A stretch of DNA of 32,000 bases from positions 191,053-223,052 of the forward strand of contig DXJG01000002.1 in the NCBI GenBank assembly GCA_019056805.1, written 5' to 3'. The notes beneath the pieces were generated by a model. That model ran no database searches, was not told the DNA's origin, and worked only from the letters and a program-made list of their open reading frames with translations. Source of the DNA: Candidatus Baldrarchaeota archaeon (lineage in GTDB: Archaea; Asgardarchaeota; Baldrarchaeia; Baldrarchaeales; DXJG01). The translations under genes and the position numbers were made by a program. This document shows positions 6,796 to 19,520 of the stretch, piece after piece (position 1 is the first letter of the stretch; each line of letters starts with the position of its first letter).

Positions 6796-7350
6796 TTAAG
6801 CTCTAAACCACGTAAATACGTAATATATCGGTTTACCGTCAGGACTTATTGTTGATATTATGAATTTCTTTCTCACGGTAGTTGCAAGTCTACCGGATCT
6901 CACTATTTCTAATGCAGAAAGTTTCGAGTTCATCGGTAAAACATGAACTAAGAAAGGGGCGTGATCAATTCCAGGACCATGCTCATAAACAGCAAAATCA
7001 GCACCAAACTTCATTCCAGGCCGAACAACATATCCTTTCTCCCTAAGATCTTTATACACTATGTATTTTTCCTCAAATTTTTCGTGAATTTTTGACGCAA
7101 TTTTCTTAAATTCTTCAAATGTTAATTCACGGTTCGTCTCCGCATCTATTAAAATAAGTCTATTCTTTTCCATTAAATATAACGCTTCTAAAAAAGATAG
7201 TTCTAAAGGCTTATTGAAACTAGGGGCTTTCGGCTTTCTGATTCCAAGAGGTTTACCATAAAATCCTTCAGCATAAAGTTTTGAGCCTTGTTCAGGATTC
7301 CAAACGACAACTCTACTTCCAAGAAATTCTCCTCGAATCTTTTCCGACAT
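6796..7350 (-). CDS. endA: tRNA splicing endonuclease, catalytic (alpha) subunit
   Basis: YKDLREKGYVVRPGMKFGADFAVYEHGPGIDHAPF and VRKK carry the Tyr/His/Lys triad; LELSFLEALYL is also present. Confidence 0.95.
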   Translation of the reverse strand: MSEKIRGEFLGSRVVVWNPEQGSKLYAEGFYGKPLGIRKPKAPSFNKPLELSFLEALYLMEKNRLILIDAETNRELTFEEFKKIASKIHEKFEEKYIVYKDLREKGYVVRPGMKFGADFAVYEHGPGIDHAPFLVHVLPMNSKLSALEIVRSGRLATTVRKKFIISTISPDGKPIYYVFTWFRA

Positions 7351-7360
7351 TTTTTCCCTC

Positions 7361-8014
7361 CTAACCTAACTTACCGACTGCTATGATTCTTACCGCATCC
7401 GCTGCATCTTCTGCAATATCAGCAATCTCCTCAATATGCCTAACAAAATCTATCACTTTAATTAAGGTTTTTGCGCTTATATCCAAGTTGTAAAGCGTGT
7501 GGACAATAACTCTTTGTAGTACATCAACTTTTCTCTCCGATTCGTCAACTTCTTCAGCTATCTTTATGGCTTTTTCCACGTTTTGAGGAAGCATGAAAAT
7601 TGCTTCTCTTAATTTTTCAACAGACTTTACAACCCATTCAATGAATTCTCTAAACATGTCAGCTAATTCGCCCTGAGGACGCCAATCACGTAAATGTGAT
7701 AGTCTAAAGCTCGTTGCGTCAGCATAATCAGCTATTTCATCTGCAATAAGACTTAATCGCATAAGATCTTCTCGCTGTATTAATGTAGCAGCCTTAGAAA
7801 CCTCATCTAGTAATGCTCTTTTTATTTCATCTGCTTCTTTTTCTAAGGACGAAATTTTTTCTAACCTTTGCTCAATTGATTCCCATCTGTTGTTTATCCA
7901 ATCTTCTACCATAAGAGATAGTTCTTTTACGGCTGTTATTACTTTTCTTATATGGTCTTGGTACATATCAAGTGCTTTTCTTTCTTCGTCATTTGTATAT
8001 GGATTTATAACCAT
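7361..8014 (-). CDS. DUF47 / PhoU-like phosphate transport regulator
   Basis: Two helical repeats, LEKEADEIKR, REDLMRLSLIADEIADYA, ESERKVD and IEEIADIAEDAAD. Confidence 0.85.
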   Translation of the reverse strand: MVINPYTNDEERKALDMYQDHIRKVITAVKELSLMVEDWINNRWESIEQRLEKISSLEKEADEIKRALLDEVSKAATLIQREDLMRLSLIADEIADYADATSFRLSHLRDWRPQGELADMFREFIEWVVKSVEKLREAIFMLPQNVEKAIKIAEEVDESERKVDVLQRVIVHTLYNLDISAKTLIKVIDFVRHIEEIADIAEDAADAVRIIAVGKLG

Positions 8015-8308
8015 GAACGCTACCTCCTAGGAAATATTGAGCCATTTCAAGTTTAAATTGAATGTTAAATCTTTATCGTTATTTCTAAATCGCTGTGCAA
8101 CAAATGATAACCCCCATTTATAATGTTTTCGTAAAACTTAGGAACGTACATTGATGTGGATTTGCGTCAAATAAACATAGACTTTTCGATTGATATCGGT
8201 AAATTGAAGTTGATCAATAAATTAGCAAGAAAAATATTGGAAATGTTCTAACAATATTTTTAAATAGCTGTTTTTGTTAAGTACGCTTCAAATCTTATTT
8301 CGGAAGTC

Positions 8309-8316
8309 TTATATAA
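8309..8316 (+). promoter_or_regulatory. TATA box of the downstream sRNA candidate
   Basis: TTATATAA lies about 20-25 nt upstream of the C/D RNA candidate at 8335. Confidence 0.55.
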
Positions 8317-8334
8317 CTCTCGTAAGAACATAAT

Positions 8335-8401
8335 ATGCCGATGAAGAGTGGCATCAGCTGGCTAGGCTTTGCCGATGGCCTGGGATCAACCACCTGAGCA
8401 T
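8335..8401 (+). ncRNA. Box C/D guide sRNA candidate
   Basis: GC-rich intergenic island with terminal stem ATGC/GCAT, C-like CCGATGA (8338-8344), D'-like CTGG (8358), C'-like CCGATGG (8372) and D box CTGA (8394-8397). Guides are 13-15 nt. Confidence 0.72.
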
Positions 8402-8504
8402 CCTACTTATAATTATACGAGACTTCCTTAGAATAATTTTTAAATATTGAAGATAGTTTTAGTCTGATAAATTCCATTCCTGATCAAAACTCTAGGCGAG
8501 AAAA

Positions 8505-9479
8505 ATGTTATTGACAGACCTTTTTGAAAAAAATAAATTAAGATTTCTACTGTTTGGCGGTAAAGGCGGTGTAGGAAAAACAAGTTGTGCAGCAGCGACT
8601 TCCCTTTGGGCAGCAGAAAATGGAAAAGAAACCCTAGTAATTAGTACAGACCCAGCTCACAGTTTATCGGATAGTTTCGGAGAAAAAATAGGAGATTCTA
8701 TCAAAAAAATAAACGGAATAAAAAACCTCTATGGTCTTGAAATAGACCCTAAAAAAGCAATACGTGAATATAGCGAAAAACTACAATCAACACCAGATTT
8801 AGGCCTACCAATAGATGTACAAACGGACGAACTCGAGGAATTGACATCTCTTACGCCGCCAGGAGCTGACGAGGCTCTTGCTTTTGCAAAAGTTTTAGAA
8901 TTTATAGAAAGACCCGAATATGACCTCATAATTTTCGACACTGCTCCAACTGGGCATACTTTAAGACTTCTTAGTTTACCTGATATTTTAAACAGTTGGG
9001 TTGGAAAACTCATTAAAATGAGAGCATGGATTCTTCGAATGACCTCCTTCTTTAAAAGAATTTTAGGTAAAGGAGGAGAAGAGGACAAAACGATGGAATA
9101 TCTTGAAAAACTAAAAAATACTATTGAGACAGCAAGAGCAGAACTGTCAAATGAAGAGGAGACACGATTTATACCAGTTATGATTCCAGAGGCCATGTCA
9201 ATCTACGAGACGGAGCGCTTAGTAAGAACTTTATACGAATACGAGATTCCAGTTACACACATCATTGTTAATATGATTCATCCAGAAGTTCTAGGATGTA
9301 CTTTTTGTGCAGCTCGTAGAAGCATGCAAATAGAGAATCTAAAAATTATTAATGAGTATTATTCTGACTTTTCAATAGTTTATATGCCTCTCTTTCCGAC
9401 CGAAATTAGAGGTATTTCGAAGCTTAGGGAATTTGCAAAATACCTTTTTGAGGAGGAATTTATACCTAAATTATATTAG
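8505..9479 (+). CDS. arsA: ArsA/Get3(TRC40)-family ATPase
   Basis: GGKGGVGKTS P-loop, STDPAHSLSD, PPGADEA, DTAPTGHTLRLL and a C-terminal CTFC. Single ATPase domain. Confidence 0.93.
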   Translation: MLLTDLFEKNKLRFLLFGGKGGVGKTSCAAATSLWAAENGKETLVISTDPAHSLSDSFGEKIGDSIKKINGIKNLYGLEIDPKKAIREYSEKLQSTPDLGLPIDVQTDELEELTSLTPPGADEALAFAKVLEFIERPEYDLIIFDTAPTGHTLRLLSLPDILNSWVGKLIKMRAWILRMTSFFKRILGKGGEEDKTMEYLEKLKNTIETARAELSNEEETRFIPVMIPEAMSIYETERLVRTLYEYEIPVTHIIVNMIHPEVLGCTFCAARRSMQIENLKIINEYYSDFSIVYMPLFPTEIRGISKLREFAKYLFEEEFIPKLY

Positions 9480-9672: not shown

Positions 9673-11004
9673 GTGACACAAACATCTACTATAGTATTCC
9701 TAGGAGGAGCGCGAGAAGTAGGTAGAACATCGATATTATTGGAGCTTGAAGATCTAAATATTCTACTTGATTGTGGAATTAATGTAGGTGGAAAGGGAGA
9801 GAATAGATATCCCCTCTCAATGCCGAAAAAACCAGACATAACAATTTTATCTCATGCTCATCTTGATCATGCAGGCTATATTCCAGCGATTGCTAAAAAA
9901 TATCAATGTAAAATTTATGCTACACCCCCGACACAAGATATATCCGAAATTTTACACATAGACCTACTAAAAATCGCTAAAGAAAGTAGAGATGCTTTAC
10001 CCTTTGAAATGAAAGATGTTATGGCTCTCAGAAAATACTTTATTGATTCCTCATACAGAATACCAATTTCCCTAAACGATAATGTCAAGCTTACCATGTA
10101 TAGGTCTGGTCACATCTTAGGCTCAGCTATGATAAAAATTGAAACAGAGTCACTTTCCATCCTTTACACCGGAGATTTATCAATGCGAAATAGTAAAACT
10201 CTTGAAATGGCAGATACAGATGTTGGAAAAGTAGACATACTCATAATTGAATCTACCTATGGGCATTCCTCAGATAAACATCCAAGTAGACAAAAAACAG
10301 AACAAGAGTTCATAAAAGCAATCCAAAAGACCATTAAAAGAGGAGGAAAAATTCTGGTACCTGCATTTGCAGTAGGCAGAGCTCAAGAAGTCATGCTTAC
10401 ATTAGAATCTTACATGAGAAGTAAAGCCCTATCAAATGTCCCAATCTATATTGATGGAATGATAAGAAAAATTAACGAACTCTACAGAATCTACTGGTTT
10501 TACTTAAGACCGCAAATAAGAAGAACAATAAGATATGCAAAAAGAAACCCACTAGAATCTAAACTATTTACGATAGTAAGAGACAGAGATGAACCCGTTG
10601 AACGAGAAGAACCATGTATAATCATAAGTACCTCAGGGATGTTAGAAGGCGGACCGGCAATGTTTTATCTAAAAGAACTTGGCAATGATCCTAAAAACCT
10701 TATTTGTCTAACAGGTTACCAAGTACCAGGTACTAGAGGAAGAAAATTACTTGATGGAGAGAAAGAAATAGAATTACCAACCGGAGAGGAAATTGAAGTT
10801 TCAGCAGAAGTAAAATTATTTGATTTTAGCGCGCACGCAGATCAACCCAGCTTGTTCAGGTTTATTTCTTATTTAAAAGGAGTACAAAAAGTATTTTGCA
10901 TACACGGAGAAGAAAATAAAGTATTAGATTTTTCAGAAAGAATAAAGAAAAATAAAAAAATTGAAGCATATGCCCCCAAAGTCGGAGAAGAAATAACGCT
11001 CTAA
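9673..11004 (+). CDS. Metallo-beta-lactamase/beta-CASP ribonuclease (aCPSF2-like)
   Basis: FLGGAREVGR, LDCG, SHAHLDHAG, GHILGSA, YTGD, ESTYG, PAFAVGRAQE, FSAHAD and HGE. No KH domains. Confidence 0.92.
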   Translation: MTQTSTIVFLGGAREVGRTSILLELEDLNILLDCGINVGGKGENRYPLSMPKKPDITILSHAHLDHAGYIPAIAKKYQCKIYATPPTQDISEILHIDLLKIAKESRDALPFEMKDVMALRKYFIDSSYRIPISLNDNVKLTMYRSGHILGSAMIKIETESLSILYTGDLSMRNSKTLEMADTDVGKVDILIIESTYGHSSDKHPSRQKTEQEFIKAIQKTIKRGGKILVPAFAVGRAQEVMLTLESYMRSKALSNVPIYIDGMIRKINELYRIYWFYLRPQIRRTIRYAKRNPLESKLFTIVRDRDEPVEREEPCIIISTSGMLEGGPAMFYLKELGNDPKNLICLTGYQVPGTRGRKLLDGEKEIELPTGEEIEVSAEVKLFDFSAHADQPSLFRFISYLKGVQKVFCIHGEENKVLDFSERIKKNKKIEAYAPKVGEEITL

Positions 11005-19454: not shown

Positions 19455-19520
19455 AGGTTCAGTCCGCCCGTCGTCCACATCCACGAGGTCAGTACTGCAA
19501 TGGAACATCATCACCCAACA
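19455..19520 (-). ncRNA. Box C/D guide sRNA predicted to direct 16S rRNA Cm1402 (E. coli numbering)
   Basis: Minus strand: C GTGATGA (19514-19508), D' CTGA (19492-19489), C'-like TGGATGT and D CTGA (19462-19459). D guide CGACGGGCGG is complementary to CCGCCCGUCG. Confidence 0.85.

Follow-up and report, generated by a model that had tools for sequence, protein, structure and literature searches.

In eukaryotes, the 5' segment of small-subunit rRNA is bound by U3, whose GGAUCA-containing box A pairs with the homologous segment of 18S rRNA and holds the central pseudoknot open. U3 carries a separate 5' domain with the GAC, A', and A boxes, makes hinge pairings with the 5' ETS, has a B/C motif and dedicated proteins, and directs no methylation. 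The pairing of U3 with the small-subunit rRNA 5' segment is also covered in a review (PMC8339473), and according to that review and another (PMC3608112), archaea are not known to have either a U3-like sRNP or one that acts in processing independently of modification.

The closest archaeal counterparts are box C/D sRNAs aimed at the same end of 16S rRNA. In Thermococcus, the guide considered here is carried by Rfam family sR14 (RF01145), which the Thermococcus copy matches with 52.4 bits against a threshold of 38. The guide of sR14 reads N-GGAUCAACCGG followed by CUGA and lies on the 5' (D') side of an independently placed RNA, with a 12-nt spacer, canonical boxes, and both box-adjoining bases paired to 16S, such that the fifth position from the box (+5) falls on the equivalent of E. 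coli U13. In Ignicoccus hospitalis, sR155 was detected by RNA-seq and has a D guide that reads GGGATCAACCGG followed by CTGA, together with a GAUGAAGA-type C box; its targets are listed as not predicted (Dennis et al. 2015, PMC4644070). By sequence, sR155 would pair over 12 bp with Ignicoccus 16S C4-U15 and place +5 on U8, which is the same nucleotide. For Methanopyrus kandleri, sR23 is predicted to address 16S U12 and G35, and sR31 to address 16S C4 and C28 (PMC4644070), and the 16S 5' end is thus already a documented target region. These two RNAs differ from the guide described here in that other nucleotides are aimed at and in that both guides of each have assigned, nearby targets.

Here we describe a box C/D sRNA from a Candidatus Baldrarchaeota archaeon, encoded within a window of 32,000 nt (the whole stretch of DNA that was analysed, G000:C9:191053-223052) from a metagenome-assembled genome of 1.92 Mb, 18 contigs, and 35.5% GC. 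We consider it likely, with a probability of roughly 0.7, that this sRNA is a C/D methylation guide for the E. coli U13 equivalent of the organism's own 16S rRNA. Like sR14, it appears as an independently placed C/D sRNA directed at the same 16S segment in the same register. It differs from sR14 in using the 3' (D) guide with a 15-nt spacer, in having the two bases AC between the pairing region and box D, and in its degenerate C' and D' boxes. Homology to sR14 is not detectable beyond the guide, and the RF01145 model finds no match in 8200-8520 even at E up to 10 (threshold 38 bits). Similarly, sR155 departs from the Baldrarchaeota sRNA in its 12-nt spacer and in its partner guide, which is unlike.

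The putative gene occupies the only GC-rich island in an otherwise AT-rich spacer of 490 nt between the PhoU-like and Get3/ArsA genes (Table 1), with 56% GC in the island compared with 35.5% over the genome. In BLAST comparisons with 60 relatives, the conserved block shows 94-98% identity in three other species of the genus (G001-G003), while both flanks have diverged. The four-way alignment (A1) is nearly invariant from UGCC to GAGCA and diverges fast outside it, except that the TATA box and the GAA upstream of it are themselves invariant. Just three substitutions fall within the sRNA: one in each guide (5', 8348 G/A; 3', 8382 G/A) and one in the D'-C' linker (8369 U/C). From the TATA centre to the first base of the conserved RNA block downstream is about 24 to 27 nt, the usual distance in archaea. 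The original prediction had proposed an independently promoted C/D sRNA and had suggested a look at its conservation in relatives; both the invariant, correctly spaced TATA box and the conservation within the genus between diverged flanks bear this out. On this evidence, the sRNA is a genuine, previously unannotated, and independently promoted gene of the box C/D type. Its transcription and the RNA ends given in Table 1 are predictions from the same features.

Table 1. Predicted elements of the sRNA gene and its neighbours, numbered by position in the 32,000-nt window
Feature	Position	Strand	Remarks
PhoU-like gene	7361-8014	minus	one flank of the sRNA-bearing spacer
BRE-like purine-rich GAA	8303-8305	+	invariant in all four species of the genus; promoter span 8303-8316
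TATA box CTTATATAA	8308-8316	+	unchanged across the four species of the genus in alignment A1, where adjoining bases differ
Box C/D sRNA gene	8335-8401	+	67 nt; ends predicted; conserved block 8336-8400
Terminal stem	UGC 8336-8338 with GCA 8398-8400	+	three pairs invariant in A1; covariation neither for nor against
C box region CCGAUGAAGA	8338-8347	+	CCGAUGA (8338-8344) or AUGAAGA (8341-8347); invariant in the genus
D' guide AGAGUGGCAUCAG	8345-8357	+	13-nt spacer
D'-like box CUGG	8358-8361	+	degenerate, without the GA of CUGA; invariant in the genus
C' box CCGAUGG	8372-8378	+	GAUG core kept, final A replaced by G; invariant in the genus
D guide CCUGGGAUCAACCAC	8379-8393	+	C'-D spacer of 15 nt, versus about 12 nt canonical
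D box CUGA	8394-8397	+	canonical; invariant in the genus
Get3/ArsA ATPase gene	8505-9479	plus	other flank of the sRNA-bearing spacer

Beyond the genus, BLAST returned no match to the sRNA with a meaningful E value among the 60 relatives, the hits being short chance matches, mostly in coding sequence. A match in the sister-family genome G004 was rejected as a different sRNA that has GCCGAUGAAGAGUG in common with ours. This sister-family C/D sRNA (G004:C56; L016, about 1405-1500) begins with GCCGAUGAAGAGUG and carries two guides, CCUGCGU and ACGCAGG, that are mutually complementary.

Searches of the whole window at Rfam gathering thresholds yielded no family, and at E up to 10 in 8200-8520 only weak partial matches to sR55 and sR41 were returned. 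The sR55 (RF01307) match, with 16.1 bits, E = 0.18, and a threshold of 35 bits, extends over no more than the C box and the first bases of the D' guide; sR55 was rejected as an orthologue, the Thermococcus RNAs with the same guide being sR14. The failure of any Rfam family to reach threshold, together with a minimum free energy fold no more stable than that of shuffled sequences (z = -0.06), could be taken to mean that there is no RNA gene here and that a conserved regulatory or otherwise non-coding DNA element upstream of Get3/ArsA happens to resemble a C/D sRNA. However, a shuffle-like fold says nothing against a C/D sRNA, as such RNAs are not expected to fold stably on their own. The sharp boundaries of the GC-rich conserved block, the correctly spaced and invariant TATA box that belongs to it, the canonical D box, and the GAUGA core all speak against a DNA element, as does the match of the guide both to the organism's own 16S and to the guides of proven sRNAs such as Thermococcus sR14 and Ignicoccus sR155, of which sR155 was detected by RNA-seq (PMC4644070). 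We find such an element hardly credible and continue with the sRNA gene.

Two genes for RNA-processing enzymes lie on either side of the locus, one for the tRNA-splicing endonuclease EndA (6796-7350, minus) and one for a beta-CASP/RMMBL ribonuclease (9673-11004, plus). The same genome encodes Nop5 (C9:90344-91021, 259.2 bits), whose gene adjoins that of fibrillarin (C9:91152-91832, 335.6 bits).

Read 5' to 3' over 8335-8401, the predicted RNA consists of AUGC, CCGAUGA, AGAGUGGCAUCAG, CUGG, CUAGGCUUUG, CCGAUGG, CCUGGGAUCAACCAC, CUGA, and GCAU. The TATA box, terminal stem, and C/D boxes described in the original prediction are all present, with the reservation that the C, C', and D' boxes are noncanonical and that a fourth terminal-stem pair, A8335-U8401, exists in the Baldrarchaeota genome under study, while its relatives keep just 3 bp. 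The C box is off the consensus RUGAUGA at its first two positions and keeps the GAUGA core, and the C/D pair has the GA and the G needed for the sheared pairs and the G-C pair of a kink-turn. The alternative AUGAAGA form of the box is also seen in a candidate sRNA of the same genome (C9:111935, in both C and C'), in the Njordarchaeia sRNA discussed below, and in Ignicoccus sRNAs.

The departures from canonical layout gain context from a second C/D sRNA in the window, at 19455-19520 on the minus strand, whose spacers measure 15 and 14 nt and whose C' box, UGGAUGU, is likewise degenerate. Long spacers and a weak C' box in this neighbour suggest that such features are a habit of the lineage and not the sign of a special function. 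The other candidate C/D sRNAs of the genome have spacers of 11 to 14 nt. The 19455-19520 sRNA is ordered as GUGAUGA, a 15-nt guide, CUGA, UGGAUGU, the 14-nt guide GGACGACGGGCGGA, and CUGA, and its D guide fits the 1400 region of 16S (C1402). In reconstituted archaeal sRNPs, a defective internal motif lowers methylation.

The D guide draws its functional assignment from the start of 16S rRNA. As the original prediction had read directly from the sequence, GGGATCAACC lies at 8382-8391 within this guide. The organism's own 16S 5' end was located by a scan for the complement of the guide combined with blastn; Rfam-based searches for 16S and 23S in the genome and its class returned nothing except a partial 16S in G004. 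The own 16S starts at C5:4415, and contig C5 ends with the 16S leader and about the first 30 nt of 16S, ...CCCCTTAACACCGGTTGATCCTGCCGGACCCGACC. It reads CCGGUUGAUCCUGCC, identical in G001, G004, and five metagenome contigs, and the start shared by this and the same-genus 16S genes, ...ACACCGGUUGAUCCUGCCGG, allows an 11-bp duplex with the D guide. This duplex joins bases 8381-8391 of the guide to G11-G21 of 16S (E. coli numbering) through 9 Watson-Crick and 2 G-U pairs, and it replaces the 10-bp Watson-Crick duplex originally drawn from the general archaeal motif. The predicted target nucleotide is unaffected by this revision. Counting five bases upstream from box D leads to A8389, and the base opposite it in the own 16S is the first U of GGUUGAUCC, equivalent to E. 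coli U13, as proposed; the AC that adjoins box D in the guide is left unpaired. The one substitution of the 3' guide preserves this pairing, with G8382 being replaced by A in G002 and G003 and the G-U pair with U20 becoming A-U.

The rRNA available for comparison comprised the leader and about 390 nt of 16S from G001 and G004, with five metagenome contigs extending the genus 16S to about 650 positions. The 16S leader of the organism is present in the metagenomes that yielded contigs Ga0180302, Ga0180300, Ga0190363, Ga0209410, and Ga0164311. The 16S 5' end is the best partner of the D guide in all own and genus rRNA and in three Asgard sets of 16S plus 23S. Shuffled guides equal the match, including the +5 position, in 2.4-7% of cases against the 16S and 23S of three complete Asgard genomes, and taken alone the match is only modestly significant (p of about 0.03-0.07).

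With 2.4-7% of shuffles reaching the 16S match alone and with most of the own 16S and 23S unassembled, it could be argued that the real target is another RNA, such as a tRNA, an mRNA, or an unassembled part of 16S or 23S, and that the match to the 16S 5' end is coincidental. A longer match does exist, a 14-bp complement of the D guide at C6:70973, where it lies on the sense strand of a protein-coding gene. It was dismissed as a chance match: three changes in the G001 and G003 orthologues break the pairing, while the guide itself is unchanged. No better match than the 16S 5' end was found in the GC-rich islands of the genome, including tRNAs, nor in the rRNAs of five complete Asgard genomes or the genus 16S to about 650 nt. 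The original prediction had named a longer perfect match to another RNA, one explaining the whole 15-nt guide, as a finding that would overturn it; with the 14-bp match unconserved, the 16S 5' end stays the best partner. The independent recurrence of the same guide in many phyla, described below, also argues against coincidence. We therefore judge another target to be very unlikely and retain the 16S 5' end.

Several observations were made on the rRNA genes in the course of this search. They are split over contig ends (C5:4040-4439, L054; C6:1-900, L055; C1:1-420, L056). On the reverse strand, the start of C6 carries tRNA-Ala followed by about the first 340 nt of 23S, and the 3' end of 23S is found at the start of C1. 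Upstream of tRNA-Ala on C6 lies about 370 nt of AT-rich sequence that is not rRNA. The 16S and 23S genes are therefore probably unlinked, and two complete Asgard genomes, G039 and G028, show the same arrangement. The leader contains, about 70 nt before the start of 16S, a long hairpin and, after it, CUGAUG and CCAGCA separated by six bases (L054, about 290-330; L061 in G004). This motif is kept in both Baldrarchaeia families and may be a processing or protein-binding site. One metagenome contig of the genus (L184, 16S positions about 170-552) has within 16S an AT-rich insert of about 381 nt that is flanked by the inverted repeat GUGCCACAGC / GCUGUGGCAC and is lacking from another contig, L187; given these flanks, it is probably an rRNA intron of the bulge-helix-bulge type. 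Finally, a 16-nt copy of the 16S 5' end (TCCGGTTGATCCTGCC) is present at G000:C4:20391 on the minus strand, antisense within an open frame of 439 codons that starts in a signal-peptide-like manner; the chance expectation for such a copy is about 0.001 per genome.

The second guide does not lend itself to a comparable assignment. A perfect complement to the D' guide would read CUGAUGCCACUCU. Among Asgard rRNAs, this guide would pair best with the 530-loop strand CUGGUGCCA, over 9 bp and with +5 on U516, and 18-38% of shuffled guides do equally well. The original prediction had suggested that this guide might bind a pre-rRNA spacer. No such target was found in the leaders of 16S and 23S or in the 23S trailer; the spacer that follows 16S is unassembled. 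Against the own (about 330 nt) and G001 16S leaders, the longest complementarity is 7 bp or less, at CUGAUGU, and no match above chance was found in the region of the 23S leader and tRNA-Ala, in the 3' end of 23S with its trailer, or in the GC-rich islands. The same holds for rRNAs from five Asgard genomes, for the genus 16S as far as about 650 nt, and for the 3' part of G004 16S with 1.5 kb downstream. A 14-nt perfect complement to the D' guide of the relatives, at C9:30806, is antisense to the uL3 gene and was dismissed, and duplex folding of the whole sRNA against the leader was set aside for giving long, meaningless duplexes. For the middle segment of the sRNA, the duplex energy with the leader is no better than with unrelated pieces of rRNA. 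With CUGG in place of a D' box, the D' guide may be inactive.

The D guide was placed in a wider phylogenetic context by a scan of prokaryotic genomes, one per species, for a C-type box, 1-2 bases, GGATCAACC, two bases, and CTGA. With the register fixed in this way, at least 120 loci were recovered. At least 89 of these have a 12-nt spacer (1-nt gap), reading NGGAUCAACCNN and then CUGA, and at least 75 of the 89 sit within a two-box C/D layout, at least 51 as the D guide and at least 24 as the D' guide. A 13-nt spacer (2-nt gap) occurs in at least 32 matches, with none in a two-box C/D layout among the matches listed. Taxonomic labels follow the same division. Among the first 80 matches listed, all 55 with archaeal titles, and 4 with bacterial titles, have the 12-nt spacer, and all 21 titled matches with the 13-nt spacer are labelled bacterial. 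The 55 archaeal entries include Thermococcus, Desulfurococcales, Sulfolobales, Bathyarchaeia, Nitrososphaeria, Methanomethylicia, Nezhaarchaeales, and Njordarchaeota. One 2-kb contig titled as a Bacillaceae metagenome-assembled genome (JACDOE010000023.1, L064) carries a C/D sRNA identical to that of Thaumarchaeota/Nitrososphaeria contigs (L092, L110) and is probably a mis-binned archaeal contig.

A fixed offset between guide and box is of particular interest for function. In a second scan, 0-6 free bases were allowed before the box in 61 genomes drawn evenly from one Thermoproteota order, that of a Desulfurococcales match. Of the 25 loci recovered, 17 have an offset of 2 nt, which is the register that puts +5 on U13, 4 have an offset of 0 nt, 4 have an offset of 5-6 nt, and none has an offset of 1, 3, or 4 nt; the reversed control gave 7 over all registers together. 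The dominance of the 2-nt offset fits site-specific 2'-O-methylation, as a mere pairing element would need no fixed offset. In five Thermoproteota genomes (G403, G436, G447, G430, and G438), GGATCAACC is followed directly by CTGA, mostly beside a copy with offset 2. These offset-0 copies may represent a second sRNA whose target lies two bases further on in the 5' segment of 16S.

Within the Asgard archaea, 400 genomes were scanned, and a clear sRNA with this guide was found outside the genus only in the Njordarchaeia genome G314, with an orthologue in G315 identified through BLAST. This sRNA (L049, L051, L052, and L091) resembles that of Baldrarchaeota in its AUGAAGA C box and in its guide, AGGAUCAACC(A/G)U followed by CUGA, and the G314 copy likewise has an unpaired A at +2. 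It differs in that the guide lies on the D' side with a 12-nt spacer, and the other guide and the remaining RNA are unrelated. Judged by these matches, a guide against the 16S 5' end in fixed register is a widespread class that extends over Thermococci, Thermoproteota, and two Asgard classes.

Alongside a methylation guide, the original prediction had offered a U3-like chaperone as an explanation of the locus. In this alternative, the sRNA would delay the formation of helix 1 and the central pseudoknot without methylating its target, and its defective boxes would reflect lost catalysis. The position of the duplex is in line with this idea: both the 5' strand of helix 1 and the U17-C19 strand of the pseudoknot fall within G11-G21, the segment bound by U3 box A, and both RNAs are of the box C/D class. 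The CUGG at D', the C' box ending in G, the 15-nt spacer, and the two unpaired bases beside box D could be accommodated in the same way, and the niche would be open, archaea having no known RNA of this kind (PMC8339473; PMC3608112). However, the Baldrarchaeota sRNA is only 67 nt long, with its pairing element in the D-guide position; it has no U3 boxes and no visible 5' domain or B/C motif, and no U3 family in Rfam matches 8200-8520 at E up to 10. The hinge-like pairing that might be sought in the 330-nt 16S leader is limited to 7 bp or less for the guides and is no better than with other rRNA pieces for the middle segment. Elsewhere, the same guide is found in double-guide sRNAs with 12-nt spacers, the methylation-type offset dominates the free-register scan, and long spacers with a degenerate C' box recur in the neighbouring sRNA aimed at C1402. 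A U3-like role in place of methylation thus received no specific support and is unlikely. The methylation guide is favoured instead by the target in the organism's own 16S, the pairing-preserving G8382A substitution, the presence of Nop5 and fibrillarin genes, and the recurrence of the same +5 register across archaeal phyla.

It can be hypothesized how such a methylation guide would act. The sRNA would be transcribed independently, and L7Ae, Nop5, and fibrillarin would assemble on the C/D kink-turn. The 3' guide would then pair with G11-G21 of nascent 16S, a few bases from the mature 5' end, and fibrillarin would 2'-O-methylate U13, in the 5' strand of helix 1, opposite the +5 base. As long as the duplex lasts, neither helix 1 nor the central pseudoknot, whose 5' strand is U17-C19, could form, and a transient effect on folding might accompany the modification. 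The assembly of the RNP, methylation at U13, and any effect on folding are all put forward here as predictions, and in the literature examined we found no experimental report of a 2'-O-methyl group at the 16S U13 equivalent in any archaeon.

In conclusion, the main yield of this analysis is the correct annotation of a previously unannotated Asgard C/D sRNA with a well-supported predicted target in 16S rRNA. The 16S site of this guide is the site that U3 occupies on 18S, and one published copy of the guide, sR155, had been listed without a target. As reviews report no U3-like RNA in archaea, this guide class is a natural place to test for a trans-acting RNA in pseudoknot formation. It could be speculated, as a doubtful but conceivable extension, that the guide against the 16S 5' end, which is widespread in thermophilic archaea, doubles as a trans-acting chaperone that holds helix 1 and the central pseudoknot open in early assembly. 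If so, the guide would correspond in function to the binding of 18S by U3 box A, which may even have evolved from it, and the degenerate internal boxes and long spacer in the Baldrarchaeota lineage would be steps towards a non-catalytic role.
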